In this document: one piece after another, positions 6,873 to 56,822 of the stretch | Position numbering within the stretch: the first letter of the stretch is position 1 | How the letters are laid out: every line of letters starts with the position of its first letter | NCBI GenBank assembly: GCA_019744815.1 | Contig: JAIEUA010000016.1 | Span: forward strand, 11,502-75,501 | Reading direction: 5' to 3' | Length of the DNA stretch: 64,000 bases | Source: Phycisphaerales bacterium | Lineage (GTDB): Bacteria; Planctomycetota; Phycisphaerae; Phycisphaerales; UBA1924 | Made by a program: the position numbers and the translations under genes | The notes under the pieces: model-generated | The model's database searches: none | The model's input: only the letters and a program-made list of their open reading frames with translations | What the model was told of the DNA's origin: nothing

Positions 6873-7840
6873 ACGAAGCGGCTGCGCCTCAGGTCAGTTG
6901 GCCGTTGCCCAAACTCCTTCAGGAACGCGTTGGAGAGGTGAGCCTCGCTGCAGAAGCCGTGCTCGAGCGCGATGTCGAGCATTCGGCGTCGGCTGTCGAG
7001 GATGGATTCCATCGCGGCCCGGAGGCGGAGGCGTTCGAGGTAGCGGTGGATGGGCATGCCGGTGTGGCGCTTGAACACACGGCAGAGGTGGAAGGGCGAG
7101 ACGAAGACGGATCGGGCCAGATCGGAGAGCGAGTGCTTCTCGGCCGGCGCGATCGCGAGTCGGCGGCGCACCTCGTCGACGGCTTCGCGTTGGAAGGCCG
7201 CTTGGGCGGGGGAGGGGCGGCGACGACGTGGGGGCAACTGAGCAGACGCGGAGGCGTGGACCATCGAACCGATCACCGCGAGGAGGGTTTCCTCAATCTC
7301 AAACGCCTCGATGCGGGTGCGAGCAGCAGGGTTCTGGAGCATGGAGTCGGATCGGGCACAACCCCCCCGCTGCTCAGCGTGATCACGAGCCTTGGGAGTG
7401 AGCTTGGCGGCCAGATTCGAGACTGCGAGTAGGGGTGCTGTGGGGATCGGGCCGCTGCGCCAGGGGAAGCGTGCGTCCGGGTCGATGGGGTTGCCGGTCG
7501 CGGCCGAGAGCATGTCGGCGAGCGCGGTCGGGTGGACGTCGAGCCAGAGGTTGGAGACGCCCGAGGAGGTGAGAGCCTGACGACGCATGACCGACCCGAC
7601 CGACGTGAAGACCGCGGTGTTGCGATCGCCTTGAACGGGAGGCTCGCGGTCGAAAGAGATCGAATAGGGCAGGCGCGGGATGGTCAGTGTGGGCCAGACG
7701 TACGCGACGCGATCGCGGTTGAGCTCGGGGTGACCCGGGGTCATGCGGATCGTTCCGATGCCCACCAGAGACGACTCAAACAGCGGCCTGGCGGGGTCCC
7801 AGGGCACCGCGTCGGGCCTGATGGCGCATGCGGAAGGCAT
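6869..7840 (-). CDS. AraC family transcriptional regulator
   Basis: C-terminal dual HTH region: LSDLARSVFVSPFHLCRVFKRHTGMPIHRYLERLRL...IALEHGFCSEAHLSNAFLKEFGQRPTDLRR. Confidence 0.8.
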   Translation of the reverse strand: MPSACAIRPDAVPWDPARPLFESSLVGIGTIRMTPGHPELNRDRVAYVWPTLTIPRLPYSISFDREPPVQGDRNTAVFTSVGSVMRRQALTSSGVSNLWLDVHPTALADMLSAATGNPIDPDARFPWRSGPIPTAPLLAVSNLAAKLTPKARDHAEQRGGCARSDSMLQNPAARTRIEAFEIEETLLAVIGSMVHASASAQLPPRRRRPSPAQAAFQREAVDEVRRRLAIAPAEKHSLSDLARSVFVSPFHLCRVFKRHTGMPIHRYLERLRLRAAMESILDSRRRMLDIALEHGFCSEAHLSNAFLKEFGQRPTDLRRSRFV

Positions 7841-8947: not shown

Positions 8948-9832
8948 TCAGGCCTTGCCCAGTCTGGTGGAGGCGTGTCGAGTCGCCACCAAGCGGATGG
9001 CGATGTTCACGAGAAAGAGCATCGCGAGCAGCACGAGGATGCCGGCCCAGGCGAGCTTTTTCTGCTCGGGGTACGGGCCGGTCGCGTAGGTGTAGATCTG
9101 GAGGGTGAGGGACGGAAAGGGCTCGCTGGGGTTGCGGGTGAGAAGGCGGCTGCCCAGCGCGGTGAAGAGGAGCGGCGCGGTCTCGCCGGCCACGCGGGCG
9201 AGGGCGAGCACGACGCCGGTGGAGATGCTGCCGAAGGCGGTTGGGAGGACGACCCGGAGGACGGTCTGGGCCTTGCTGGCGCCGAGCGCGAGGGATCCCT
9301 CGCGATAGGACTTGGGGACGAGCCGCAGCATCTCTTCGGTGGTGCGTGCGACGATGGGGATCATGATGAACGCGAGCGCGGCGGCACCGGCGTAGCCGCT
9401 GAAGGAGACGGAGTTGCTGGTCATCTTGGCGACGGGCACGACGACGAGCTCGTATCCCAGAATGCCGACGACGATGCTGGGGACGCCGGTGAGCACATCG
9501 GCGATGAAGCGGAGCGGGCCCGCGAAGAGCCACTCGTGCTGGTACTCGGAGAGGTAGACGCCGGCGCTGACGCCCAGGGGAATCCCCACCACCGACGCGA
9601 GGCCGAGCAGGATGATGGTGCCCTCGATGGCGTGGCGCATGCCGCCCGGGTCGTTGAGATCGCCGGTGGGGATCTGAGTGAAGAACGCGGCGTTGATGGA
9701 GCCGGCGCCGATCCAGACGAGGTATCCGGAGACCGCGAGCAGGAGCGCGACGATGACTCCGGCGCAGGCGGCGCAGAGCGCGAACATCGCGTTGCTGAAG
9801 ATCCGTCGGCGTTCGGTGCGTGCCCTGATCAT
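8948..9832 (-). CDS. pstA: Phosphate ABC transporter permease PstA
   Basis: Polytopic permease with the EAA-like loop ([21 protein letters not shown]) in the pstC-pstA-pstB order. Confidence 0.9.
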
Positions 9833-36662: not shown

Positions 36663-36786
36663 CAGTCACCGTCCCGTCGGTGGCGGTGCCCGCCCTCTCG
36701 AGTGCGACGCATTCGGCCGGCCGAACACAGGACGATTCGGGTTGAGGGCGATATGCTTAGCACCGCGGCAAGGGCCGCGACATGCT

Positions 36787-36860
36787 GTGCCCGTAGCTCA
36801 ACTGGATAGAGCGCTGCCCTCCGAAGGCAGAGGTTACAGGTTCAACTCCTGTCGGGCATG
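36787..36860 (+). tRNA. tRNA-Arg (anticodon CCG)
   Basis: Acceptor GTGCCCG/CGGGCAT, D arm GCTC..GAGC, anticodon arm CTGCC-CTCCGAA-GGCAG, T arm ACAGG-TTCAACT-CCTGT. Confidence 0.85.
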
Positions 36861-36963
36861 TTTTCTGGTACGAAGGTAAGCCCCGGCGGGCGTCGCGATG
36901 CCCGAAGCATCGCTGACGCTCTGGCTCTCGACCATCGAAACGGGGAGCCGCCGAGGGCGGCGC

Positions 36964-37055
36964 TCATCCCTTCGTCCACATGTTCTTGCCGTAGATCGCG
37001 CTGTCGCCGAGTTCTTCCGCGATACGGAGCAGCTGGTTGTACTTGGCGTTGCGGT
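36964..37055 (-). pseudogene. Truncated duplicate of the enolase 3' end
   Basis: Encodes ...[29 protein letters not shown], versus the intact eno C-terminus [28 protein letters not shown]. About 75 nt align with 4 mismatches to 39135-39210. Similarity decays and the frame breaks upstream of 37055. Confidence 0.8.
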
Positions 37056-37102
37056 GCTGTGGAAACCGGCTCGAGCGGGCCAGCCGGTGGCGGCAGAGCG
37101 GA

Positions 37103-37516
37103 TCAACCAACAACGGTCGCGAAACTCGCCCAGACGAAGACCGTGGCAAAGTAGACGCAAAGTCCCGAAACAATGATGCGCAGGCTCGTCTTTGCGGTGT
37201 CGCCTTGCCAAAGGGTCCGGTCGTAGTACCACAGTTGCACGGCGAGTCGGGCGGCCCAGAACACACCAAGCCCAAGATAGATCACTCGTCCAAGCTCGCC
37301 ACTGCGGAGGATCGTTCCCGCATGGAAGAGCAACAGCAAACCCACAAGCACCAGAATCAGAACGACAAAGAGCGTGTGAACGACGAATATCTGCCGGTTC
37401 AAGAGACTCAGCCGATTCAGTTCTTCACGCCAGCGAAACCACCTTGGGAAGAACGCATGGACGCCGGCAATCAGCAGCATGAGGAGACCGATCGCGCGAA
37501 GATGCCATTCGATCAT
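37103..37516 (-). CDS. Small integral membrane protein (4 predicted TM segments)
   Basis: MIEWHLRAIGLLMLLIAGVHAFF... ATGA start/stop overlap with the upstream methyltransferase-like gene. Low-GC cassette. Confidence 0.5.
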   Translation of the reverse strand: MIEWHLRAIGLLMLLIAGVHAFFPRWFRWREELNRLSLLNRQIFVVHTLFVVLILVLVGLLLLFHAGTILRSGELGRVIYLGLGVFWAARLAVQLWYYDRTLWQGDTAKTSLRIIVSGLCVYFATVFVWASFATVVG

Positions 37517-38292
37517 TCCGATGCCCTTTGAAGTTCGAACACACGCACGAACGGGGTGATCCGGCGTTCGGACACCACTCGCAGCGAGGCGGCTGAGAAG
37601 GTCGCGAGCCACACGCGTTGAGACAGGAAGTGGACAAATCCGCCGCCGAATGCGACGAAGTTCGCCGCATCCCGCAAGTGCTCGACGACGAAACACCGGC
37701 CGCCAGCGGACAAGCGTGAAGAAAGATCGGACATCAACTCAGCGCGGCGATGATCGCGTCGCACCTCGTGCAGGCAGAAGATCGCAAACATGACATCCAC
37801 GTTCTGGACTTGGTCTGGAACAGTCCCGGTGAATCGAACCGACGGCCAAGCCGGTGCCGCATCCTTGCGAGCTCTAGCGATCGACGGTTCCGTCATCTCG
37901 GCCGGATCAAAGATGTCGAGGACGAGAAGGGGAGGCTGACCGAGCACCGCGGCCAAGCCCGGTGTCGACTCGTCCAACCCCGCGTGAACATTGATCCAAC
38001 GGATCGGAGCTCTGAGACCGATCTCTCGAACCCAGGTCCACTCGTACAGCCTGGACCGGTCGTACACCCAGTGAGACACGACGGCCGACGCCAACAGCCA
38101 CCACCCGGCGAGGGCGGCTCCTATCAGAAGGACGGTCGTCGCCCACAGGGGCAGGGGGACCAAGATCGCGGACAAACTCGCCGCCGCCACAACAACGGTC
38201 CCTACCAGATACTGCGGCCAGTTGTAGCGCAGAATCTTGGCGACTCCTTCGAAGGGTCGGCGTTGCGCTGCTTGGAGGAGTTGATCGCTCAT
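37513..38292 (-). CDS. Membrane-anchored class I SAM-dependent methyltransferase-like protein
   Basis: Two N-terminal TM helices, then VLDIFDP, DVMFAIFCLHEV and GGRCFVVEH segments resembling the methyltransferase fold. ATGA overlap with the upstream gene at 38289-38292. Confidence 0.55.
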   Translation of the reverse strand: MSDQLLQAAQRRPFEGVAKILRYNWPQYLVGTVVVAAASLSAILVPLPLWATTVLLIGAALAGWWLLASAVVSHWVYDRSRLYEWTWVREIGLRAPIRWINVHAGLDESTPGLAAVLGQPPLLVLDIFDPAEMTEPSIARARKDAAPAWPSVRFTGTVPDQVQNVDVMFAIFCLHEVRRDHRRAELMSDLSSRLSAGGRCFVVEHLRDAANFVAFGGGFVHFLSQRVWLATFSAASLRVVSERRITPFVRVFELQRASE

Positions 38293-39050
38293 GGCGATGA
38301 CGTTCCAAGCTGCTCCGTGATTCCACGTTCCCACCGATAGTCGATGCCGGATGTGTAGAACGCGCTGGCGAATCTGGCGCCCACGCCCTTGAAGATGGCC
38401 GATCGCAGCATCGACACCTCTCGGACTTCTACTGGTACCGGACGCGGATTCCAGTGCTCTCGCATTCCCTTGATTCGGACGATGGAATGCGTTTCCTTCT
38501 CGTAGTCGAATGTGTACGGCAACGGCCCGGCGAATCGCCGCGCTTCCTTCCACGTCGAGAAGATACCAGCAGGCGGCTCGGCGACCTCGCGATCAACATG
38601 GGCAGTGAGATCAATGTCCGCCTGTTGATCTCCGGAACGAACCCGCACATCAAGTATTCCGTCGACAAATCGAACGTCTGCCTCACAGAGCCGATACTGG
38701 TAGTGGGTCAGCAGATTGCCGCCCCAGACCATCCGCCGCTTGTTGGCATCGCTTCTCAGAATTCGTAGGCCCCGAAGCGTCCGACCTTCCGCGGTCCGAT
38801 ACGTTGCGAATACCCGGTAGCCGGTCAGGAAGAAATCGGATCCCAAAGCCGCGGGGAGACCTACGGGTCGAAGTCGCTCAGTCTGCACCATCGCGACCGC
38901 GACGAATCCGGCACCATTCCATTCGTCCACGGTAAGTCCCGGCGGAAGAAGCGGCTGCAAGATCTCGACCGGGAACGCATACGTGAGCACGAGGCAGTAA
39001 CGAAACCGCGCCTGAATCGGAATGGGATGCCGTTTCAGTCGGTGCAGCAC
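38289..39050 (-). CDS. DUF2071-like (acetoacetate decarboxylase-fold) protein
   Basis: 253 aa. The pattern LVLTYAFPVEILQPLLPPGLTVDEWNGAGFVAVAMVQ...FFLTGYRVF resembles DUF2071 family members. First gene after eno on the same strand. Confidence 0.5.
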   Translation of the reverse strand: MLHRLKRHPIPIQARFRYCLVLTYAFPVEILQPLLPPGLTVDEWNGAGFVAVAMVQTERLRPVGLPAALGSDFFLTGYRVFATYRTAEGRTLRGLRILRSDANKRRMVWGGNLLTHYQYRLCEADVRFVDGILDVRVRSGDQQADIDLTAHVDREVAEPPAGIFSTWKEARRFAGPLPYTFDYEKETHSIVRIKGMREHWNPRPVPVEVREVSMLRSAIFKGVGARFASAFYTSGIDYRWERGITEQLGTSSP

Positions 39051-39116
39051 CGGCCCTCCTGCTCAGGGTACGAATCGTGGCTCGTGCGTGTTCGAGGGTT
39101 CCGAAGCCGGCCCCGA

Positions 39117-41716
<2,600 letters not shown>

Positions 41717-44054: not shown

Positions 44055-44328
44055 CGTTCGCTGAGGGCCAGCACTTTTCGGAGCACGCTGTGCCTCGGAG
44101 GCCGCGCTCTTGCCTCGTGAATCCGGAACACGCCGATCGACGCCTCCGTTCCATACGGACGTGAAGGGACGCCTATCGGATGAGAGCTCGTGTGTCGATC
44201 CGCGATAGCGCGAATCCGGGACTGGACGCAGGCACGCGATTGCCCGGCTCGGTCGCCACGGGCCGGATGCTTGATAGCATGGCGGTTGTTGTGGGGCTCG
44301 GTGCTCGTGATCTGACGGAGCTTGATCC

Positions 44329-44697
44329 ATGTCCAAGTCCACGCCCGACCACGATGAGCGAATCGCTACGATGACCTTCGCATCGGTCTATCCCCACTAC
44401 GTCGCGAAGGTCGAGAAAAAGGGCCGAACGACGAAGGAACTGCACGAGGCCATCGAGTGGCTCACGGGCTTCGACGAACGGCAGATCCAGAAGCACATCG
44501 ATGAGAAGATCACCTTCAAGGAGTTCTTTCGGCGGGCCACACTGAACTCCAACGCGCATCTGATCACCGGCGTGATCTGCGGCTACCGCGTCGAAGAGAT
44601 TGAGAATCCAGTGACACGGCAGGTCAGATACCTGGACAAGCTGGTAGACGAGCTCGCCAAGGGAAAGACAATGGACAAGATTCTGCGTCGCGGCTAG
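44329..44697 (+). CDS. DUF2200 family protein
   Basis: RIATMTFASVYPHYVAKVEKKGRTTKELHEAIEWLTGF matches my recollection of the DUF2200 consensus. Lies in a lower-GC patch. Confidence 0.6.
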   Translation: MSKSTPDHDERIATMTFASVYPHYVAKVEKKGRTTKELHEAIEWLTGFDERQIQKHIDEKITFKEFFRRATLNSNAHLITGVICGYRVEEIENPVTRQVRYLDKLVDELAKGKTMDKILRRG

Positions 44698-45200
44698 ACG
44701 GCCACATCTTTCACGGGGCGCCCCGCCGAGTAACGAGAGCGCCCGCGTCGTGCGACGCCGGGTTCTTGAGAGTCGATGAAAGAGCCTGCTCAGTTCTTGC
44801 CCGACGGACCCGAGATCCGTCCCGCGAGTTCTGCCACGACCCGCTCGATCGAGTTCAGACGTTCGCGAAGTGCCGCGTTCTCCGCACGAAGGACGGCGGC
44901 CTCGTTCTTCATGGCGTTGATCTGCGTTTCCTTCTCACTGCACAGATCACGCAAGGCCTCGACCGGGAGCGCCAATGCCCAAGATGTTGAGCGACTTGGT
45001 GTCCTGGTCGAACGTGCCGAACCACTCTTGCGAATGGAGGATTGGTGACGGCCTGACGACTCGCGTGTCAGAGCCCCTCAGACTAGGCGGCGGGATGGCA
45101 CCGCCCGGCATTGTTCTTCCACGACTTGATTGAGCTCTGGGCTCCGAGGACTTGACCATTTGTGTTTGACTCTTTTCGCAAATGGTGATATCTTTCTGCC

Positions 45201-45878
45201 GTGGATCACCAAGAGGCCATCACCCAGAGCCCACGTGCCGTGCCTTTGCCCGTATGGAAGCAGCTGATGACTCCAGTACGCGCGGAGATCATCGAGGCCA
45301 TGCGCACGCTTGGGCCCGCCACCATCAAGGAAGTCGCGGGCTTGCTCTCTCGCGCCCCGGCATCCCTTTACGCGCACTTTACTCGTCTCGTCTCGCTCGG
45401 AGTCCTCCTTGAACGCGAGCCCCGTCGGCTCACGAGGCACACCGAGAGCGTCTTCGAGCTCGCTGCGCACGACTTTGTTCCCCAGTTTCGCCGCGCGAGC
45501 GACGCTTCGATCGGCGACATCGCAACGATTACGGCCCAAGGCGTTGTGCGCTCCGCCCTGCGCACGCTCCGGGCTGCGGCCCGCGCCGATCAGCTGAGCT
45601 TCGGTCCGGATGAGGCGAACCACGGAATCCTGCACGAGGTGGTCTGGCTGAACCGGTCCGAGCTCGCCGAACTGCGGGCGGCTCTCCGATCTGTCAAGAG
45701 ACTGTGCGGAACGCGGAAGACGCCACACGGTCGCCAGCCGCACCTGCTGATCGCCCTGTACATGCCGGTCGTCGGAGCATCACGTCGACGCTCACGCGCG
45801 AGCACGGCCCCCAAGGCGGCGAAGGCCCGCGCGCAAGGCGCTCGCAGAGCTCGGAGATTGCATCCCGATGAATCCTGA
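45201..45878 (+). CDS. Winged-helix (ArsR/MarR-like) transcriptional regulator
   Basis: VRAEIIEAMRTLGPATIKEVAGLLSRAPASLYAHFTRLVSLGVLLE is HTH-like. Overlaps the start of the S8 peptidase gene by 11 nt. Confidence 0.55.
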   Translation: MDHQEAITQSPRAVPLPVWKQLMTPVRAEIIEAMRTLGPATIKEVAGLLSRAPASLYAHFTRLVSLGVLLEREPRRLTRHTESVFELAAHDFVPQFRRASDASIGDIATITAQGVVRSALRTLRAAARADQLSFGPDEANHGILHEVVWLNRSELAELRAALRSVKRLCGTRKTPHGRQPHLLIALYMPVVGASRRRSRASTAPKAAKARAQGARRARRLHPDES

Positions 45879-49521: not shown

Positions 49522-51048
49522 TCAGCCCCCCAGGCCGCTGTCGGGCTGCTTGTACCCCTCCGCCACGGCTCGCTCGAGTCGGTCAATTTCTTCATTGGTC
49601 AACAGCCGGAAGTGCGACTCCCGCTTCCGCTGGGACAACTTCCCGTTGTTCTGCAGACAGAATCGGATGAACAGGTCGATATCGCGATCGGGCATGTCGA
49701 CGATCGCCTGCACGGAGCGCTTTGTGTCGTCGTAGTTCGCCAGGAAGGCCAGCTCTTCGACGAGTTCCGTTTCGATGGTCTGCTCGACGAAGGTGAACAG
49801 GCTCTCGGCCTGCACGGTCATGTCCGGGTACCTGTACCAAACGCCGGGATCGTTGTGGACCGTCATGCGCCCCTGATCGTCGAGCGTGTATTCCACCAAC
49901 GCCAAGAGCGGGCGTGAGAAGGCCTCCAGCGACGCGTCATACGCTGCGGCCTGCTTGCGCATCGCCGCTGAAACTGGGAAGATCACCCCTTCCGGCACGA
50001 AACCTCTCCGACTGAGGATGTTGTGGATGAGGAGACGGTGGATGCGGCCATTGCCATCCTCGAACGGGTGAACGAACACGAAGCCGTATCCAACGATCGC
50101 CGCCTGGATAACTGGATGGACGGAGCCGCGCTCCATCCGTACGTGCGCCGAGATGATCCCCGCCATCAGGGCCGTGACGTGCTCGGGCTTCGGGCAGACG
50201 TAGTGCACGCGCTCCTTCCCGATGGAGACCGTCTCGCCGACGTAGTTTTGGCTGTCGCGGTAGTCGTCATCCTTGAACCGAGGGTCCACGATCTGATTCT
50301 GGAGATCGATCAGCCGCGGCTTGGTGCACAGGTCCTCTTTTAGAGCGACTCGCAGAAGAGCGATGAATCGCTCGGTTCTGTTCGCGTCCGGTTTGATGTT
50401 CTCGATCTCGAAGGACGACTTTGTCTCCTTCGTGTACAGGTAGCTCAGTGCTCGTCGGAGGAGTTCGGGAGAGTACGACGAGATCAGCGTTCTGCACCGG
50501 GCGGAAAGATCCCGTGCGATGAATGCCGAAATGGTCTCCGTTTTCCGAATCGTCGGACAGAAGCTCGCGTCGCCGAGCAGATTGTTGTTGACACGCTGGC
50601 GTCGAATCGGCTCCGCGCGATCGAACGTGAAGTGCTCCTCGCTCTCCAGGAGATCCACGTAGTTTCCCTGCGTCAGGTCGGCAAGCGGGAGACGATCGCC
50701 GGTCAGCATCTCGTAGAAGTACCAGATGCGGCGGGCGTATTTCCCGTTCGGCTTCGAGTTGATGTATCTGGCGATCTCGTTCGCCCCGATCGCCGGCAGA
50801 AGGACCGCCAGGATGCCAAGGTTCATTCCGTCGTACTTCAGGGCGAACTCGAGGTGGTCTCCTGGACTCTCACCCGGCCAGTACGCAGCCGGGTATGTCT
50901 CGACGACCTCGCCCGCTGATGAATCGGTTCGTCGGGTACTACCCTCAGAAATGACGGACCGATGCCAGTTTGGCATCGCGCGGATCGCATATCGATCGAG
51001 CAGCGCGGTGTAGCCTGCGGGCCGGGTTGTCGCCTTTGGCTGGTCCAT
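49522..51048 (-). CDS. Fic/DOC family protein (508 aa) with internal inhibitory-helix motif
   Basis: Fido core HPFEDGNGRIHRLLIH (HxFx[DE]GNGRxxR). Upstream SSFEIEN fits the [ST]xxxE[GN] alpha-inh motif. GAGGAG precedes the ATG. Lower GC than the flanks. Confidence 0.85.
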   Translation of the reverse strand: MDQPKATTRPAGYTALLDRYAIRAMPNWHRSVISEGSTRRTDSSAGEVVETYPAAYWPGESPGDHLEFALKYDGMNLGILAVLLPAIGANEIARYINSKPNGKYARRIWYFYEMLTGDRLPLADLTQGNYVDLLESEEHFTFDRAEPIRRQRVNNNLLGDASFCPTIRKTETISAFIARDLSARCRTLISSYSPELLRRALSYLYTKETKSSFEIENIKPDANRTERFIALLRVALKEDLCTKPRLIDLQNQIVDPRFKDDDYRDSQNYVGETVSIGKERVHYVCPKPEHVTALMAGIISAHVRMERGSVHPVIQAAIVGYGFVFVHPFEDGNGRIHRLLIHNILSRRGFVPEGVIFPVSAAMRKQAAAYDASLEAFSRPLLALVEYTLDDQGRMTVHNDPGVWYRYPDMTVQAESLFTFVEQTIETELVEELAFLANYDDTKRSVQAIVDMPDRDIDLFIRFCLQNNGKLSQRKRESHFRLLTNEEIDRLERAVAEGYKQPDSGLGG

Positions 51049-51059
51049 TGCTGACTCCT

Positions 51060-51186
51060 CAAAACGGATACGACGACGCCAAAATCGTTATGGAAGGCCA
51101 TTGTACCACCAAAACGGTTACGGAAGCGGATCAAACTCGGTATGTTTGGATTGTGGACGGATTTTTCGTCCCAAAACTGGTACAGA
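51060..51186. promoter_or_regulatory. Phased direct repeats (CAAAAC-GGTTAYGGAA-like) in the fic/jetA divergent control region
   Basis: Copies at 51060 (CAAAACGGATACGA), 51080 (CAAAATCGTTATGGAA), 51110 (CAAAACGGTTACGGAA), 51132 (CAAACTCGGTATG) and 51172 (CAAAACTGGTACAGA). Spacings are 20, 30, 22 and 40 bp. Confidence 0.5.
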
Positions 51187-51351
51187 GCACACGGCCTTCG
51201 ACACGAACGGACACTCGCAGCCGGATTTGCTCGCCAGAGCACCGGACAGGCATGGTCTGAAGCCGCCACGCGATCTCCATCGGAGCGCTGCCCGCAGATG
51301 CCGTGGCAACTACCCTATTCCCGTGGAAACCAGAGCGATCGGAAAGCCGCC

Positions 51352-52821
51352 ATGCGCCTTGACCTGCTTCTCGCATATTTTGGCACGTCGCCAGCGCTGA
51401 AGTTGCTGCGGGCACAACACGCGCCGTTCGTGATTGACTTTCTCCACCGGCAATTCAAGGCACCAGGCCGCATCTCGCTACCCGCGTCTGATCTTGTAAG
51501 CGCTTTGAACGACTACCGGGAGTCCGTGCAAACAACCCATCCGGACGCCTTGCGCGACAAACCCGAGCACTACCTGTCCGCTTGGTGTAGTGGGGAAACA
51601 CGCTGGCTGCACCGCTCCGTCGAAGGGGGCCGGAACGAGCCGGTGTTTCAGTTGACGCCGCACACAGAGGACGTGTTCATATTCCTCGACCGCGCGCTCC
51701 AGAAAGACCTGGGGTTCGTCGGCACCGAGTCCCGCCTGCGCGTCGTGATCAGCACTCTGGCCGATCTCGTCGCCGGTGCCTCGCACGATCCCGAAGTTCG
51801 CTTGGCGCATCTCCGAGAGGAACGCACAAGGATCGATGATGAGATCGGACAGATCCTGAGAGATGGCGGGGTCGAGGCGCGGTATGAACCGGCAGCGGTG
51901 CGAGAGCGGTTCGCCACCGCTGTTGGACTGCTCAAGGAACTGCTCTCGGATTTCCGCGCCGTTGAAGACCGCTTCAAGGAGATCACCCGCCAGGTACAGC
52001 GGCGGCAACTTGATGGAAAGGACTCCCGAGGCGAGATTCTTCAGTTCGCGCTCGACGCAGAGGATGTTCTGAAGCAGGACGATCAGGGCGTGAGTTTCTA
52101 CGAGTTTGTGCGCTTCATTCTCTCGCCCACCCAACAGGAAAAGCTCCAGACGATCATCGCCGAACTCGGGAGGATCGACGAACTTTCGCAGCAATCCGAC
52201 GGGCTCGCCACGGTGCGCCGAATGGTGCCGTCACTGATCGCGGACGCCGAAAAGGTGATGCGGACCAATCAACGTCTCTCTGCCACGCTGCGTCGACTGC
52301 TGGATGTCCGGACCGCGTCGGATCGGCGTCGAGTAACCCAACTACTCGCGGACATCCGGGGTCTCGGTGCCGCCCTTGCCGATGCGCCCCCCGCGGCGAT
52401 CAGCGCCACGGTGGATGTTGGCGTCCATGTGGCATTCCCGTTCTCGCGGACGTTCTGGAGCCCTCCCGCCGAGTTTGCGAAGATGGACCTTTCGGAGGGA
52501 CAGGTTGACGATGCACGGCGTGTCGAGTTGTTCAGGATGCTCGCCCAACTCCATCGCCTCGACTGGGCAGCGATGCGACAACGCATTCGTGCCCTTACAT
52601 CCCGCACCGGCAGGTCCATGACCCTTTCCGAGGTGGTGCGGGAGTTTCCACCGGAAGCAGGCATTGTCGAGCTCTTGGGATACATACAGATCGCCAAAGA
52701 TGACGGACACATCATCAGCCGTGAACGGTCCGAGGACATCCAGGTCGACGGGGCCGTCTCTCGCCGCGTCACCGTCCCGCTGATTGTGTTTCTCCCTCCC
52801 CAGGAGACCGCGAATGCCTAA
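51352..52821 (+). CDS. jetA: Wadjet system protein JetA (DUF3375, MksF-like kleisin)
   Basis: MRLDLLLAYFGTSPALKLLRAQHAPFVIDFLHRQF... and FVGTESRLRVV resemble DUF3375. First gene of a four-gene overlapping operon. Confidence 0.75.
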   Translation: MRLDLLLAYFGTSPALKLLRAQHAPFVIDFLHRQFKAPGRISLPASDLVSALNDYRESVQTTHPDALRDKPEHYLSAWCSGETRWLHRSVEGGRNEPVFQLTPHTEDVFIFLDRALQKDLGFVGTESRLRVVISTLADLVAGASHDPEVRLAHLREERTRIDDEIGQILRDGGVEARYEPAAVRERFATAVGLLKELLSDFRAVEDRFKEITRQVQRRQLDGKDSRGEILQFALDAEDVLKQDDQGVSFYEFVRFILSPTQQEKLQTIIAELGRIDELSQQSDGLATVRRMVPSLIADAEKVMRTNQRLSATLRRLLDVRTASDRRRVTQLLADIRGLGAALADAPPAAISATVDVGVHVAFPFSRTFWSPPAEFAKMDLSEGQVDDARRVELFRMLAQLHRLDWAAMRQRIRALTSRTGRSMTLSEVVREFPPEAGIVELLGYIQIAKDDGHIISRERSEDIQVDGAVSRRVTVPLIVFLPPQETANA

Positions 52822-53434
52822 CCCCTCTTCATCTCCGATCCCCGAGTTCCGCGAATGGAGCATCGCGGCAGTTCGATTGCTGCAGGGGGTCATCTACGCG
52901 GACGAAGACCGGGTGTGGAACATTTTGCTGTCCAATCGGTCGCAGATTGAGACCTTTTTGGCCCGCTTGGGTCTCACGCTCGTCGTCGACGAAGCGGAGG
53001 GATACGCATACGTGCGTCAATGGGGAGAAGACGAATGCCCGAGTGGGTACGAGCAGCTGCCGAAGCTGGTTCGTCGCAGCCAACTCGGATATGCGCCCAC
53101 GATGCTCGCCGTGCTGTTTCGGGACGAGCTCCGGCGGTTCGAAGAAGATGATCTTCACAACGAACGATGCGTTGTCGAGATCGACGCCATCTTCGACCAA
53201 TGGAAGGGGTTCTTTCCCGCCCAATACGACGAAGTGCGTCAGCGCAAGGAGTTCAGCGCCGCCCTGCACAAACTCGATGACCTGGGGTTCGTGCGAAAGT
53301 TCGCCGACAATCCCGAAGCGTGGGAAGTCCGCCGCATTCTGAAGGCGAAACTCCCCGCGTCCGAGCTCGAAACGCTGAAACAACAGTTGGCAGCAGCCGC
53401 GGCGGCTCGCACGCAGGGGGATTCTGATGCATGA
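52814..53434 (+). CDS. jetB: Wadjet system protein JetB (DUF4194, MksE-like)
   Basis: AVRLLQGVIYADEDRVWNILL...LGLTLVVDEAEGYAYVRQ...LGFVRKF...WEVRRILKA matches the DUF4194 pattern. 8-nt overlap with jetA; GGAG upstream. Confidence 0.75.
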   Translation: MPNPSSSPIPEFREWSIAAVRLLQGVIYADEDRVWNILLSNRSQIETFLARLGLTLVVDEAEGYAYVRQWGEDECPSGYEQLPKLVRRSQLGYAPTMLAVLFRDELRRFEEDDLHNERCVVEIDAIFDQWKGFFPAQYDEVRQRKEFSAALHKLDDLGFVRKFADNPEAWEVRRILKAKLPASELETLKQQLAAAAAARTQGDSDA

Positions 53435-56400
53435 TGCTCCGCGACTAACACCCGGCTACCGGCTCCAAAAGCTCGAAGTTTCCAACTGGGGAACGTTCGA
53501 CAGCAGCCGTGGCACGGTGCATGTGGTCAAGCCCTGCGGCGCTACCACGCTCCTGATCGGCCAGAATGGTTCGGGCAAGTCCACTCTGGTGGATGCCCTG
53601 TTGACCCTGTTCGTGCGTCCGGTTGTTCGCAACTACAACGTCGCCGCCGGTGCTCAGAAGACCGAGCGTGATGAGCGGACCTACATCAAGGGGGCGTTCG
53701 ACCGGCGAAGCCGTGACGAAGACAATCGGGCGGAGGTCCAGTTCCTCCGACCCGATGGACGGCACTACTCGACCTTGCTGGCGACCTTCAAGAACGATCG
53801 CGGCGAGGCCTTTACTGTCGCGCAGGTTCTGTACCTTGGCGGTGACGGAGGTGCCGAGAAGGTCTACGCCTTCGCGCAGGGCGAGAAGTCGATCGCCGAG
53901 CACTGTGCCAACCTTGCCACCACTGAGCGGGTGCGCCAGCAGATGGAGAAGCGCGGTTTCCGCGCCACCGACAAGTACAACGAGTATCACGGCTGGGTTG
54001 CCAAGTTCACAGGCATGCAGCCAAAGGCGATGGATGTGTTCAACCAGACCGTCGCGGTCAAGGACATCCAGAGTCTGAACAAGTTCATCCGTGAGCACAT
54101 GCTCGAGCCGAAGCCGTGGATGGAGAAGATCGAGACGCTGCAGGCGCACTTCACCCAGCTCACGGAAGCCTATCAAAGCCTGGTGCGCGTCCGTCGGCAG
54201 TTCGAACTGCTCACGCCGATTGCGGCGAAGGGCGCAACCTTCACGGCGCAATCGGACGCGTTGCGACTCGCTCAAGCCATGTGCGGTGCCGCAGGTCCGT
54301 ACTTTCGGGCGATGACGATCGAGCTTCTCGGGCCGGCGGCAGAGTTCCTTAAGAAGGAACTCTCGGCGCTCGTGGTCACCAGGGATCGTCTCGATACGGA
54401 GTTGCGGGACGCGGCCGACGAAGAGCGGCAGTTGAAGAATGAGATCGAGAACGCCGGGGGCGAGAGGCTTCGTCAGATTCCGTTGCTTATTAAGCAGCAC
54501 GAGACCGAGAGCGCCAACCGGCGAGAACGCAGCGTTCGTTTCATGGCTGCGCTGGCCACGACGGGGGTCGCCGCGGATGTGACGGACGACGCCTCGCTGC
54601 GCGAGCTGCACCAACGTCTGCCGGAGTTCATCAAGGTCTTGAGCACTCGCGAGGAAGCGCTCCGGCGTGAACATCAGGATGTCGTGCTCGATCGCGGCGA
54701 TGCGCACCGCGAACTCAGCGAGAGCAAGCGGGAGCTCGAGGCGCTCGGCACCCGCCACACGAAGCTCCCGGAGCGTCATGTGGAGATTCGCCGGCAACTC
54801 TGCGAAGCGCTGCGGCTGCCGGACAGCGAACTCCCGTTCGCGGCGGAGCTCATCACCATCCCGACGGAGGAGAAGAGCTGGGAGGCCTCGATCGAGCTAT
54901 TGCTCCGATCCTTTGCGCTCAGTTTGCTGGTGCCACAGAAGCACTACGCCGTTGTCAGTGCCCACATCGACCGGAACCGGGTCCGTGATGGCCGCGGCGT
55001 CGGTCAGAAGCTCGTGTATCTCCGCGTCGGTGGGCGTACTGCGCCACAATCACGCCCTGTCGCCCATTCTCAGTCGTTGCTCCGCAAGGTCAAAGTCAAG
55101 GACGGGCACGGCCTTGCGCCCTGGGTGAAGGGGGAGTTGGAGGAACGGTTCGACTACCTCTGCTGCGACACCATCGAGCAGTTTCAGGCTGCTCACGATA
55201 TGGCCCTTACCCGTGAGCGCCACATCAAGGGAAGGGGCACGCGACACGAGAAAGACGACCGGGATCGCGCGATCGATCCACGCGAGTTCGTTCTAGGGTG
55301 GGACAATCGCGAGAAGCGGAAGGCGCTCGCCGAGAACGTCCGGCAGCTCGAAGCCGAACTGTCCACGATGGATGCCCGGCTGAATAAGTTGAATGCAGAG
55401 ATCACGGGACTTGACGCTCAGCGCCGCTCGGCGGACGTGCTGCGAGAGACCGCGGTGTACTCCTTGATTGACTTCGCGTCGGAACAAGTCGCCATCGCGG
55501 CACTGCGGGAGGAGAAGCGCGCGCTTGAGGAATCGAGCGATGCGTTGAAAACGCTGAAGCGTCGCATCTCCGAAGTCGAGGCAACTCGGCAGCGTCTCAG
55601 CGGCGAGCGCGACGATGCTATCCGGCAGCACGAGCGTGCCTCGCAGGATTTGCGCTTTGCGGAACGCCAGATTTCGGACGCCACCCAGGCCATCTCGACG
55701 CTCCGGAAGACGGGCGAATGGTCGCGGCACGAGGAGCTGTTCCCCGAACTTTCCAAGCTCTTTGAAGGGGAGCCCCTGACTGTACACAACGTCACGCAGA
55801 GGGAGGCAGGCTTCCTTGCTGACCGGCATGCCGAAGTCGAACGTCTGAAGAAGGAGCTGGAGCCACTGGAGCGTGAGATCTGCAAACTCATGAATCAGTA
55901 TCTCCGAGACTTTGCAGATCAGCAGGCCGATCTGGACGCATCCATCGAGTACCTGGGGAGCTTCTGTGCCGCGTGCGAGCATATCCGGCGCGAAGACCTG
56001 CCCCGGCACGAAAACCGCTTCAAGGAACGGCTCAACGAGAAGGTCACGCAAGAGATCGGCATTCTCAACGGCGCCTTCCAAACCGAGAAGCAGGAGATCG
56101 AACAGAAGATCGAGATCCTCAACCGCTCGCTCAGGCAACTGGAGTACAGGCCAGGGACGTACATGAAGCTCGAGCCGCGGGCGGTCCGAGACGTGGAGAT
56201 CCAGCAGTTTCAGTCCAGCCTGCGCGAGTGTCTCGCCGATTCGTTTGAGGGAACGCTCGCAGCGGATGAGGCGCGCTATGTCCGGATTGCCAAGCTCATC
56301 GAAAAGCTCCGCGAGGAACAGCGCTGGCGAGAGAAGGTCACCGATGTCAGGCGATGGTTTGACTTTGCCGCACGAGAGCTTGACGCTGAGTCGGGCGCGG

Positions 56401-56822
56401 AGCGGGGCTACTACGAGGACAGCACCGGCCAATCTGGGGGAGAGAAGGCCAAACTTGCGTTCACCATCCTGGTCGCAGCGATCGCGTACCAATACGACAT
56501 CGACCCGAGCCGGCCCAGCAGCGATCGCTTCCACTTTGTGGTGGTCGACGAGATGTTTTCAAAGGTCGACGACCGCTATGCCGAGTACGCCCTGTCGCTC
56601 TTCCGGCAGTTCGGGCTTCAGCTGTTGATCGTGGCCCCTTTGGACGCCAAGGCCCGGGTCACCGAGCCATACGTGGAGTGCTATCTCCACGTCGTCAAGG
56701 ACTCCAAGACGCACCAATCGGAGATCTTCAGCATGACGGCGAGAGAGTTTGAGGACACCGTGTTGGGTCGACCCGCGGTGGTGACAGTTTCCCCAGCATC
56801 GGCGGCAAGCGTGACTCGATGA
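53427..56822 (+). CDS. jetC: Wadjet system SMC-like ATPase JetC (MksB-like)
   Basis: 1131 aa. N-terminal LEVSNWGTFD and Walker A GQNGSGKST, long coiled-coil middle, C-terminal SGGEKAKLAF and Walker B FHFVVVDEMFSKVD. 8-nt overlap with jetB. Confidence 0.85.
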   Translation: MHDAPRLTPGYRLQKLEVSNWGTFDSSRGTVHVVKPCGATTLLIGQNGSGKSTLVDALLTLFVRPVVRNYNVAAGAQKTERDERTYIKGAFDRRSRDEDNRAEVQFLRPDGRHYSTLLATFKNDRGEAFTVAQVLYLGGDGGAEKVYAFAQGEKSIAEHCANLATTERVRQQMEKRGFRATDKYNEYHGWVAKFTGMQPKAMDVFNQTVAVKDIQSLNKFIREHMLEPKPWMEKIETLQAHFTQLTEAYQSLVRVRRQFELLTPIAAKGATFTAQSDALRLAQAMCGAAGPYFRAMTIELLGPAAEFLKKELSALVVTRDRLDTELRDAADEERQLKNEIENAGGERLRQIPLLIKQHETESANRRERSVRFMAALATTGVAADVTDDASLRELHQRLPEFIKVLSTREEALRREHQDVVLDRGDAHRELSESKRELEALGTRHTKLPERHVEIRRQLCEALRLPDSELPFAAELITIPTEEKSWEASIELLLRSFALSLLVPQKHYAVVSAHIDRNRVRDGRGVGQKLVYLRVGGRTAPQSRPVAHSQSLLRKVKVKDGHGLAPWVKGELEERFDYLCCDTIEQFQAAHDMALTRERHIKGRGTRHEKDDRDRAIDPREFVLGWDNREKRKALAENVRQLEAELSTMDARLNKLNAEITGLDAQRRSADVLRETAVYSLIDFASEQVAIAALREEKRALEESSDALKTLKRRISEVEATRQRLSGERDDAIRQHERASQDLRFAERQISDATQAISTLRKTGEWSRHEELFPELSKLFEGEPLTVHNVTQREAGFLADRHAEVERLKKELEPLEREICKLMNQYLRDFADQQADLDASIEYLGSFCAACEHIRREDLPRHENRFKERLNEKVTQEIGILNGAFQTEKQEIEQKIEILNRSLRQLEYRPGTYMKLEPRAVRDVEIQQFQSSLRECLADSFEGTLAADEARYVRIAKLIEKLREEQRWREKVTDVRRWFDFAARELDAESGAERGYYEDSTGQSGGEKAKLAFTILVAAIAYQYDIDPSRPSSDRFHFVVVDEMFSKVDDRYAEYALSLFRQFGLQLLIVAPLDAKARVTEPYVECYLHVVKDSKTHQSEIFSMTAREFEDTVLGRPAVVTVSPASAASVTR

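Follow-up and report, generated by a model that had tools for sequence, protein, structure and literature searches.

The eno locus and its three-gene cassette

Here, we describe a locus in a 64,000-nt stretch of DNA from a bacterium of the order Phycisphaerales, phylum Planctomycetota (contig JAIEUA010000016.1, positions 11,502 to 75,501; hereafter, the window), in which a cassette of three genes separates the intact enolase gene, eno, from a second, displaced eno 3' end. Comparison of this locus with its counterparts in related genomes suggests that the cassette is an accessory operon that was probably imported by recombination anchored in eno, without the participation of an integrase. The sequences of the window and of all the relatives are metagenome assemblies.

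The cassette lies on the eno strand, and ATGA overlaps, with the ATG placed over the preceding stop codon, join gene 1 to gene 2 and gene 2 to gene 3 (Table 1). The ftsY, nusB and ribH genes are located upstream of eno, the protein product of which begins with MSFEIQ, and an ABC-transporter operon is located beyond the tRNA-Arg gene. The insert consists of the three genes only; no integrase was detected within 6 kb on either side of the cassette in the window, and no transposase is located nearby. This layout agrees with a previous sequence-only reading of the window, which recognized the three genes and their two ATGA junctions, placed the eno fragment about 100 nt from tRNA-Arg (102 nt, when measured from the stop codon of the fragment), and noted the absence of an integrase.

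Table 1. Features of the eno-cassette locus, in window coordinates
Feature	Coordinates	Strand	Basis or remark
eno, intact enolase gene, 432 codons and stop	39117..40415	-	full-length Pfam Enolase_N and Enolase_C
Spacer between eno and the DUF2071 gene, 66 nt	39051..39116	-	AGGAGG ribosome-binding site kept in a seven-locus alignment
Cassette gene 1, DUF2071 protein, 253 aa	38289..39050	-	Pfam PF09844
Cassette gene 2, 259 aa, hydrophobic N-terminal helices and class I methyltransferase fold	37513..38292	-	
Cassette gene 3, small hydrophobic membrane protein, 137 aa	37103..37516	-	
Decayed 5' part of the eno 3'-end relic	37065..37104	-	shuffle-tested local alignment, MAFFT
Well-kept part of the eno 3'-end fragment, genus type	36985..37064	-	within the 105-nt direct repeat
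Divergent end of the fragment, NMWTKG and stop	36964..36984	-	eno-tail type unlike the TWNR* of close relatives
102-nt stretch between fragment and tRNA, with a GC-rich hairpin beside the fragment stop	36862..36963	.	no counterpart in the fetched relatives
tRNA-Arg(CCG), native, syntenic with the ABC-transporter operon	36786..36861	+	ARAGORN

Filled and empty sites in related genomes

The loci of relatives with which the window was compared (designated by L numbers; about 185 overall) include 80 eno loci from GTDB genomes, by which the window is assigned to uncultured Phycisphaerales, along with the neighbourhoods fetched for the closest of the thousands of homologues of the DUF2071 protein; these neighbourhoods were scanned with tblastn. 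Among these, L081 and L001 form a pair with a filled and an empty site. Positions 1-5926 of L081 are 96.1% identical to positions 1370-7295 of L001 upstream, positions 8025-12762 of L081 are 98.1% identical to positions 7121-11856 of L001 downstream, and compared to L001, L081 carries a 2,098-nt insertion (the three cassette genes, preceded by a spacer and followed by a short one) together with a 175-nt duplicated eno tail. Thus, the proposal of the sequence-only reading that the insertion was accompanied by duplication of the eno terminus is borne out by this pair.

The two eno genes differ at only 1 site within nt 1-230, whereas the remainder of the gene (nt 231-1299) contains 60 differences. 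Over nt 201-1299, the identity between L081 and L001 is 94.5%, compared to 96.4% and 98.1% for the flanks (Fisher p = 2e-9 versus the downstream flank), whereas eno exceeds its flanks in conservation in all the other pairs. The displaced fragment of L081 matches the L001 eno tail in 171 of 175 positions, with three of the four mismatches located within the first 20 nt, whereas the intact L081 tail matches it in only 161 of 175. As judged from these alignments, the intact eno of L081 is foreign from about nt 231 onward, and the displaced fragment is of the L001 type. The simplest reading of L081 would be a single import, with a crossover in eno and rejoining 175 nt before the stop codon of the recipient's eno. 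By analogy, eno would be the homology anchor in the window as well, and the 3' part of this gene was probably brought in along with the cassette.

The eno genes of the window, L001, L002, L081 and L083, which are relatives at the genus level, are roughly equidistant (93-96% nucleotide identity in the pairwise comparisons, including that of L081 with L001), forming a star-like pattern. Given that the flanks of L081 and L001 are 96-98% identical, these distances suggest frequent exchange of eno between these species.

A second pair with and without the cassette consists of L083 and L002, in which the flanks are common to both loci and 2,002 nt of cassette in L083 stand in place of the 89-nt spacer between eno and MlaD in L002. 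The spacer (L002:7297-7385) contains a strong hairpin, CGCCGCCGTG...CACGGCGGCG, followed by TTTG. In L083 (1319-3320), the last cassette gene stops about 16 nt inside the converging MlaD gene.

Distribution of the cassette

The cassette is found 3' of eno in at least seven lineages, in three downstream contexts. In L003, L083-86, L088 and L176/177, which cover eno identities from 82% to 96% at the nucleotide level, the order is eno, cassette, MlaD, ABC and NUDIX genes, without an eno fragment, and no eno repeat was found in the cassette loci L003, L083, L088 and L176; L002 has the same flanks and is cassette-free. In L081/L082, L181-183 and L087, the cassette is followed by an eno fragment and then by an outer-membrane-like (OMP-like) gene and DUF1254/DUF1214 genes. 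In L001, eno is directly followed by the OMP-like gene, with 12 nt separating the two stop codons. Both cassette-free loci, L001 and L002, encode an enolase 98% identical to that of the window and share the ftsY synteny upstream. The fragments recur in independent assemblies (L081 and L082; L181, L182 and L183; L087 and the window), and the repeats differ in length, that of the window measuring 105 nt (82% identity), compared to 175 nt for L081 and about 155 nt for L181.

Away from eno, the operon is complete in Thermoanaerobaculia (L094/95) and full or partial in other Phycisphaerales (L092, L178 and L184); homologues of gene 3 are present in every cassette locus, including those of Thermoanaerobaculia (46%). 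Hence, the cassette is a conserved operon for which linkage to eno arose in a single clade, where its presence is polymorphic. Capture of the cassette into the 3' end of eno, as put forward in the sequence-only reading, is therefore supported insofar as the insertion is apparent against L001 and L002, but a one-off foreign capture is not, because the eno-cassette arrangement is widespread in the clade. That reading also anticipated that relatives with high-GC cassettes and without the eno fragment would speak against it; fragment-free loci do exist, but the cassettes in these loci also show low GC content at third codon positions (GC3).

In a relative in which the cassette is not adjacent to eno (L184:5247-5986 and L185:2680-3419), the DUF2071 match comes in two overlapping pieces (query residues 1-79 and 70-248) and the region is called as at least two short genes; this DUF2071 gene is probably a frameshifted pseudogene.

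The displaced eno 3' end in the window and in L087

In the window, the eno 3' end forms a 105-nt direct repeat (36951-37055 and 39101-39205) with 82% identity, and in the core of the repeat, from CGCAAC to GGCAAG, 65 of 69 nt are identical. This similarity is far beyond chance. The sequence-only reading had named a significance test of the similarity between the fragment and eno, and the result is positive: comparison of the fragment with the enolases of relatives yields a tblastn E-value of about 1e-12, and the open reading frame containing the fragment exceeds the Pfam cutoff for Enolase_C (22.2 bits versus 21.5, E 9.5e-5). Over 79 nt, the well-kept part of the fragment shows 93.7% identity with the L001 eno tail, and likewise with the L081 fragment.

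The relic extends beyond this part. The 40 nt between gene 3 and the well-kept part are decayed eno sequence, collinear in the window with eno nt 1153-1194 and, with L087 taken into account, with nt about 1140-1199 (against shuffled sequences, p = 0.009 for the window; the corresponding stretch in L087 gives p = 0.0003), so that the relic is about 160 nt long in the window and in L087, with the last codons and stop of gene 3 falling inside it. The last 29 codons with their own stop, recognized in the sequence-only reading, are thus present as described and belong to a longer relic with a decayed 5' part. The C-termini of the gene 3 proteins vary among loci past a WASFA-like motif.

L087, the nearest relative, comes from a separate sample. 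Over 2.4 kb, its identity with the window is 91.6%, and it has the same junction between gene 3 and the fragment. Its fragment terminates in ...GKSTWNR* and runs into the OMP-like gene, with TCGACGTGGAATCGGTGA at the position of window 36964-36984, and the two sequences diverge from GGCAAG onward. The last 21 nt of the window fragment are identical in 18 positions to the eno terminus of a distant metagenome-assembled genome (MAG), L032; identity with L032 drops to 71% over the 90 nt before them, and a search for the source of window 36862-36990 returned only a 15-nt exact match, again to the eno end of L032. Because L087 combines the same cassette-fragment junction with STWNR* and the OMP-like gene, the NMWTKG* end is specific to the window lineage, as are the hairpin and the neighbourhood of the tRNA. 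The cassette-free form of the locus can be sought with ATCTACGGCAAGAACATGTGGACGAAGGGATGAGCGCCGCC as a sequence handle, beside the 102 nt between fragment and tRNA.

The L087 relic is itself a mosaic, its 5' part being 68% and its 3' part 92% identical to eno (Fisher p = 2e-4). Furthermore, between the window and L087, the cassettes are 91-95% identical, compared to only 91% for the adjoining eno tails, and at third positions, the eno tail is 76% identical versus 82-91% for the cassette. Other pairs show the opposite ratio, with a synonymous divergence (dS) of 0.21-0.25 for eno and 1.1-2.6 for the cassette. This reversal implies that the cassette and eno have different histories.

Proposed mechanism of import

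Under the mechanism that we consider probable, the cassette would pass between related genomes as chromosomal DNA via RecA-type homologous recombination, with no recombinase of its own, and eno, which is much better conserved than the remaining genome, would serve as the anchor. If eno and MlaD flank the site in both the donor and the recipient, the exchange would be scar-free. When the recipient carries another gene 3' of eno, homology would be offered by eno only, and the tract would extend from a crossover inside eno through the donor eno end and the cassette to a point of rejoining inside the recipient's eno 3' end, pushing the last 100-175 nt of the recipient's eno downstream as a dead duplicate. 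A joint inside eno would be plausible in L001-type genomes given that the OMP-like gene ends 12 nt past eno, so that a farther joint would destroy that gene, and would be harmless because the donor brings a complete eno end. In the window, the fragment would represent the older eno tail after its displacement, and the intact eno would have received its 3' end with the cassette.

Directly apparent in the compared sequences are the pairs with and without the cassette, the duplication, and the mosaic nature of the L081 eno. The event in the window and L087 would, by analogy, have followed the same route as that in L081; the first rejoining may have been illegitimate, as in homology-facilitated illegitimate recombination (HFIR); and in the later spread, the old eno relic may have served as another arm of homology. 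A tentative extension of this last step is that the cassette travels with the relic as its right arm and the complete eno as its left arm, the double crossover taking place wholly in eno. Such a unit might, conceivably, insert into any relative irrespective of the gene downstream of eno. This extension would explain why the fragments are mosaics that are old and decayed toward the 5' side but fresh and of the recipient type toward the 3' side, why the mismatches of the L081 fragment cluster in its first 20 nt, how one cassette-fragment junction comes to stand in two contexts (the OMP-like gene in L087 and tRNA-Arg in the window), and how the window fragment acquired its different, possibly native, eno tail NMWTKG* with a hairpin of its own. 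The second joint in L087 and in the window falls in decayed eno sequence.

Several points weigh against import by eno-anchored recombination. No cassette-free conspecific of the window was found, and the window event is reconstructed from the analogy to L081 and L001. In all fragment-bearing loci, the far joint lies near eno nt about 1125 to 1150, and with joints so similar, one old event followed by spread or deletion is inseparable from several independent events. The polarity of the L081/L001 comparison may, in principle, be reversed, with loss in L001 between the repeats, an alternative that needs an additional conversion of eno nt 231-1124. The low GC3 and the high dS of the cassette are also compatible with vertical descent of weakly expressed genes, and every sequence compared is a metagenome assembly.

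Three further arguments were considered. The fragment lengths of 33, 52 and 56 codons were taken as proof of several insertions, and this argument was withdrawn because the fragment of the window and L087 extends farther 5' in decayed form. Derivation of the spacer after gene 3 from the 3' end of MlaD, from which a donor of the MlaD-context type could have been deduced, is not significant (best uncorrected p = 0.02 in 9 tests). High divergence of the cassette, as an argument for foreign origin, is not decisive, the cassette dS of 1.1-2.6 following the trend of the low-GC3 neighbours (TPR-GNAT, dS 1.04; nusB, dS 0.63).

Alternative explanations

Purely vertical descent would place the cassette 3' of eno since the ancestor of the clade, derive the fragment from one local duplication or rearrangement, and account for the cassette-free loci by deletion. 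The rank of the cassette identities, which roughly matches eno-based relatedness, the parallel divergence of the cassette and the neighbouring MlaD, ABC and NUDIX genes in the loci with the MlaD context, the position of the cassette dS on the low-GC3 trend, and the similar start positions of the fragments in all loci are compatible with such a history. It is nevertheless unlikely, considering that the eno of L081 is mosaic relative to L001 and its fragment is of the L001 type, that the cassettes of the window and L087 are near-identical while their eno tails have diverged like those of separate species, that the fragments combine a decayed and a fresh part, and that L002 is cassette-free despite being nested among cassette-bearing genomes (its MlaD is 95% identical to that of L083).

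A Campbell-type event, namely, a single homologous crossover with a circle that contained the cassette and one eno tail, for example after excision between repeats elsewhere, would yield exactly the observed order of eno, cassette and eno-tail duplicate. Direct repeats of 100-175 nt would permit such looping-out, and single-crossover integration of circularized DNA is documented (PMC3240628). This route is nonetheless improbable in light of L081, where donor-type eno spans nt 231-1299 and the duplication is 175 nt: an arm of 175 nt cannot import 1.07 kb, and a circle with a longer arm would leave a longer duplication. Furthermore, the circle would be non-replicating and would have no obvious transfer route.

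Direct repeats of the 3' end of a target gene around an insert are the classic signature of integrative elements, and the tRNA gene is only 102 nt away, so that site-specific integration of a non-autonomous element, with an att site in the eno 3' end, a replacement tail and an integrase encoded elsewhere, also comes into consideration. We regard it as very improbable because no integrase is found near the cassette in the window, L081, L181 or L083; the repeats are long (100-175 nt) and imperfect, and vary in apparent length between loci, with no fixed short att core; the foreign tract of L081 reaches more than 1 kb into eno, far past any att core; many cassette loci lack a repeat altogether; and tRNA adjoins the cassette in no relative.

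An assembly artefact, in which a chimeric join at a conserved eno k-mer created the duplicated eno tail or the tRNA junction, has hardly any likelihood: although all the assemblies are metagenomic, the eno tails of co-occurring relatives are highly similar, and window 36862-36984 is known from the window only, the cassette-fragment junction of the window recurs in the independent sample L087, that of L081 in L082 and that of L181 in L182 and L183, and, with genus-typical sequence on both sides of the stretch unique to the window, an artefact would need two chimeric joins.

The tRNA-Arg side of the locus

In L096, L097 and L098, a permease gene is likewise followed by tRNA-Arg(CCG), next to which comes a converging gene for a 223-aa protein, and the similarity of the window to these loci stops exactly at the tRNA 3' end (36862). 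L098 belongs to the same MAG as L081, and L097 to the same sample as L181. The 102-nt stretch 36862..36963 has no significant match in the about 185 fetched loci. Within one genus, the 3' neighbour of eno is MlaD, the OMP-like gene or tRNA-Arg. With similarity ending at the last base of the tRNA and three different neighbours of eno, both ends of the junction are synteny breakpoints.

The expectation that tRNA-Arg would face eno directly in cassette-free strains was not upheld: this arrangement occurs in no sampled relative, and eno faces the OMP-like gene or MlaD instead. The tRNA-Arg gene as the target of integration was considered and rejected, given that permease and tRNA-Arg(CCG) precede another gene in the relatives and that the cassette loci of relatives have no tRNA. 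Neither a tRNA-derived repeat nor a partial tRNA duplicate was found in the window, where tRNA-Arg(CCG) is single-copy. The OMP-like, DUF1254, DUF1801, MlaD and 223-aa genes of the relatives were sought in the window to reconstruct an inversion, and none was found.

Two readings of this side remain. Either the eno of the window's ancestor had the NMWTKG* tail, followed by the hairpin and tRNA-Arg, and the cassette came in by crossovers within eno; or a later rearrangement with another eno allele replaced the OMP-like side in the window.

Relation to known systems and implications

HFIR is known from experiments on natural transformation of Acinetobacter, Streptococcus pneumoniae and Pseudomonas stutzeri and on conjugation of Escherichia coli (PMC3240628; work cited in PMC5361080), and the same model has been put forward for displaced 3' gene ends at type VI secretion system (T6SS) and Rhs loci (PMC5361080). 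The eno case would resemble HFIR in that incoming linear DNA recombines at one end in a conserved anchor, here eno, and carries in non-homologous cargo that is rejoined nearby, without an element-encoded recombinase. The pattern of mismatches between L081 and L001 places the homologous crossover inside the anchor, and would do so for the window by analogy; the cargo is absent at the same site in the recipient-type genomes L001 (for L081) and L002 (for L083). Unlike the experimental systems, the eno case is natural and is reconstructed from genomes, and its mosaic fragments suggest that ordinary double crossovers, with the relic as the second arm, may underlie later transfers.

The orphan ends at Rhs, contact-dependent inhibition (CDI) and T6SS loci are similar in that a module enters by conserved 5' homology and its new 3' end shifts the old one downstream. 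In contrast to these, the anchor is a housekeeping glycolytic gene rather than a polymorphic toxin, the incoming 3' end of eno encodes the same protein end instead of a different toxin domain, an operon of metabolic appearance takes the place of an immunity gene as cargo, and there is a single remnant instead of an array.

Integrative islands insert at the 3' ends of genes for tRNA, tmRNA or proteins, and the interrupted target is restored from attP. As at such islands, a direct repeat of the target 3' end surrounds the insert and eno is left intact, but the eno cassette comes without an integrase, its repeats are long, imperfect and variable, many loci are repeat-free, and the imported tract reaches 1 kb into eno. 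At integration hotspots, accessory genes are in flux by recombination in conserved core-gene flanks. The eno spot shares with hotspots the presence/absence polymorphism at one core-gene position and the clean allelic replacement (L002 versus L083), and differs from them in that a single cargo type is found in the sampled genomes and that some lineages share one flank only.

The mechanism is known and the instance is new; the relic as a travelling homology arm, if true, would be the sole somewhat novel part. Nothing here overturns current understanding or calls for a new mechanism. The locus would be a natural, readable example of an accessory operon crossing species without mobile-element machinery in uncultured Planctomycetota (Phycisphaerales), in which eno, 93-96% identical at the nucleotide level where the genome is about 82-85% identical, still supports interspecies homologous recombination. 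Displaced eno ends would be datable scars that could serve to count and time transfers in MAGs. If the relic does act as a built-in arm, the cassette would be a recombinase-free, self-targeting unit, carried along by a gene that ranks among the most conserved in the genome.

Base composition and expression signals

The mean GC content of the window is 65.2% (standard deviation 2.9% in 750-nt windows), and the cassette genes, at 56-62% GC, are among the lowest 5% of the windows, with six other places in the window equally low. The contrast in GC3 is sharper, at 65-72% for the cassette versus 85-92% for eno and ftsY. The low GC content of the cassette had been noted in the sequence-only reading, which overstated that of the core (70% or more, compared to the mean of 65.2%). 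Four other regions, 44251-45250, 50001-51750, 52501-53250 and 55751-56500, contain 750-nt windows below 60% GC, as low as the cassette, and may mark further accessory or weakly expressed genes.

No terminator was detected between eno and the DUF2071 gene on the gene strand in a terminator scan, and the fold of the spacer has a z-score of +0.82, in agreement with the sequence-only reading; the only terminator match touching this area is at 39160-39184, on the plus strand and inside eno. Read-through from the eno transcript into the cassette is plausible from these signals. The claim that the old terminator was retained past the cassette is not supported, the hairpin past the fragment being at most a candidate: it has no U-tract, is as stable as shuffled sequence (z = -0.39) and is not picked up by the terminator scan.

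Predicted products of the cassette genes

The ratio of nonsynonymous to synonymous divergence (dN/dS) is 0.1-0.2 for the cassette genes, and about 0.12 for the DUF2071 gene. As judged from these ratios and from their distribution, the cassette genes are real, evolve under purifying selection and are conserved across phyla.

The DUF2071 protein matches PF09844 over profile positions 2-197 of 212 (64.3 bits versus a cutoff of 27, E 1.6e-17). Its AlphaFold2 (AF2) model (pLDDT 93.8) adopts an acetoacetate-decarboxylase-like (ADC) fold, with Foldseek matches to 3bgt, 5upb and 3c8w at E-values of 3e-10 to 2e-9 (best E 2.7e-10; TM about 0.56-0.60); the structural matches are acetoacetate decarboxylases, MppR and an aldolase-dehydratase. 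No lysine that could be the catalytic Schiff-base residue occupies an invariant or nearly invariant column among 63 DUF2071 homologues, in line with the report that the Schiff-base lysine is not conserved in PF09844 (PMC4520260); this one paper mentioning DUF2071 gives the fold only.

The gene 2 protein contains hydrophobic segments at residues 26-73. Its AF2 model (pLDDT 94.0) has 784 Foldseek matches in the PDB at E <= 0.001, and the top matches among those listed (E 2e-8 to 4e-7) are nearly all methyltransferases dependent on S-adenosylmethionine (SAM) or enzymes with the methyltransferase fold, several of which are non-methylating. In this family, the glycine-rich motif I (E/DxGxGxG) is replaced by NVHAGLDE, with H103, G105 and D107 invariant; many other His, Glu and Arg residues are also invariant, as are the HE.R and EHLRD motifs, and the window protein keeps all the invariant residues. 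There is no Pfam methyltransferase match for the window protein, nor a precomputed one for its eno-linked homologues in Phycisphaerales (P0121-P0128), and distant homologues match Methyltransf_11 and Methyltransf_25. With motif I absent and no Pfam methyltransferase match, methyl transfer by the gene 2 protein is only putative, and the protein may be no methyltransferase at all.

The gene 3 protein contains hydrophobic segments. The cassette proteins have no sequence matches in the PDB and no match to the PADLOC defence families; no NCBIfam model scores above its threshold, and a Thermoanaerobaculia homologue shows a weak resemblance to quinone/lipid methyltransferases. With low confidence, the cassette products might constitute a membrane-associated module for the modification of small molecules. 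The three-gene unit, in which an ADC-fold protein apparently devoid of the catalytic lysine is combined with a small membrane protein and with a putatively membrane-anchored protein that has a methyltransferase fold and an unusual motif I, is flagged here for attention.

Additional observations

The distant MAG locus L032, the eno terminus of which resembles the end of the window fragment, yields an ARAGORN call of tRNA-Ile(GAT) at 7123-7206, on the minus strand and inside the 3' coding end of eno; this call is probably a false positive. In L062, a second, very divergent enolase-like C-terminus (…SERLAKYNRMLWIE…) is encoded from position 9454 onward, about 2 kb downstream of eno.

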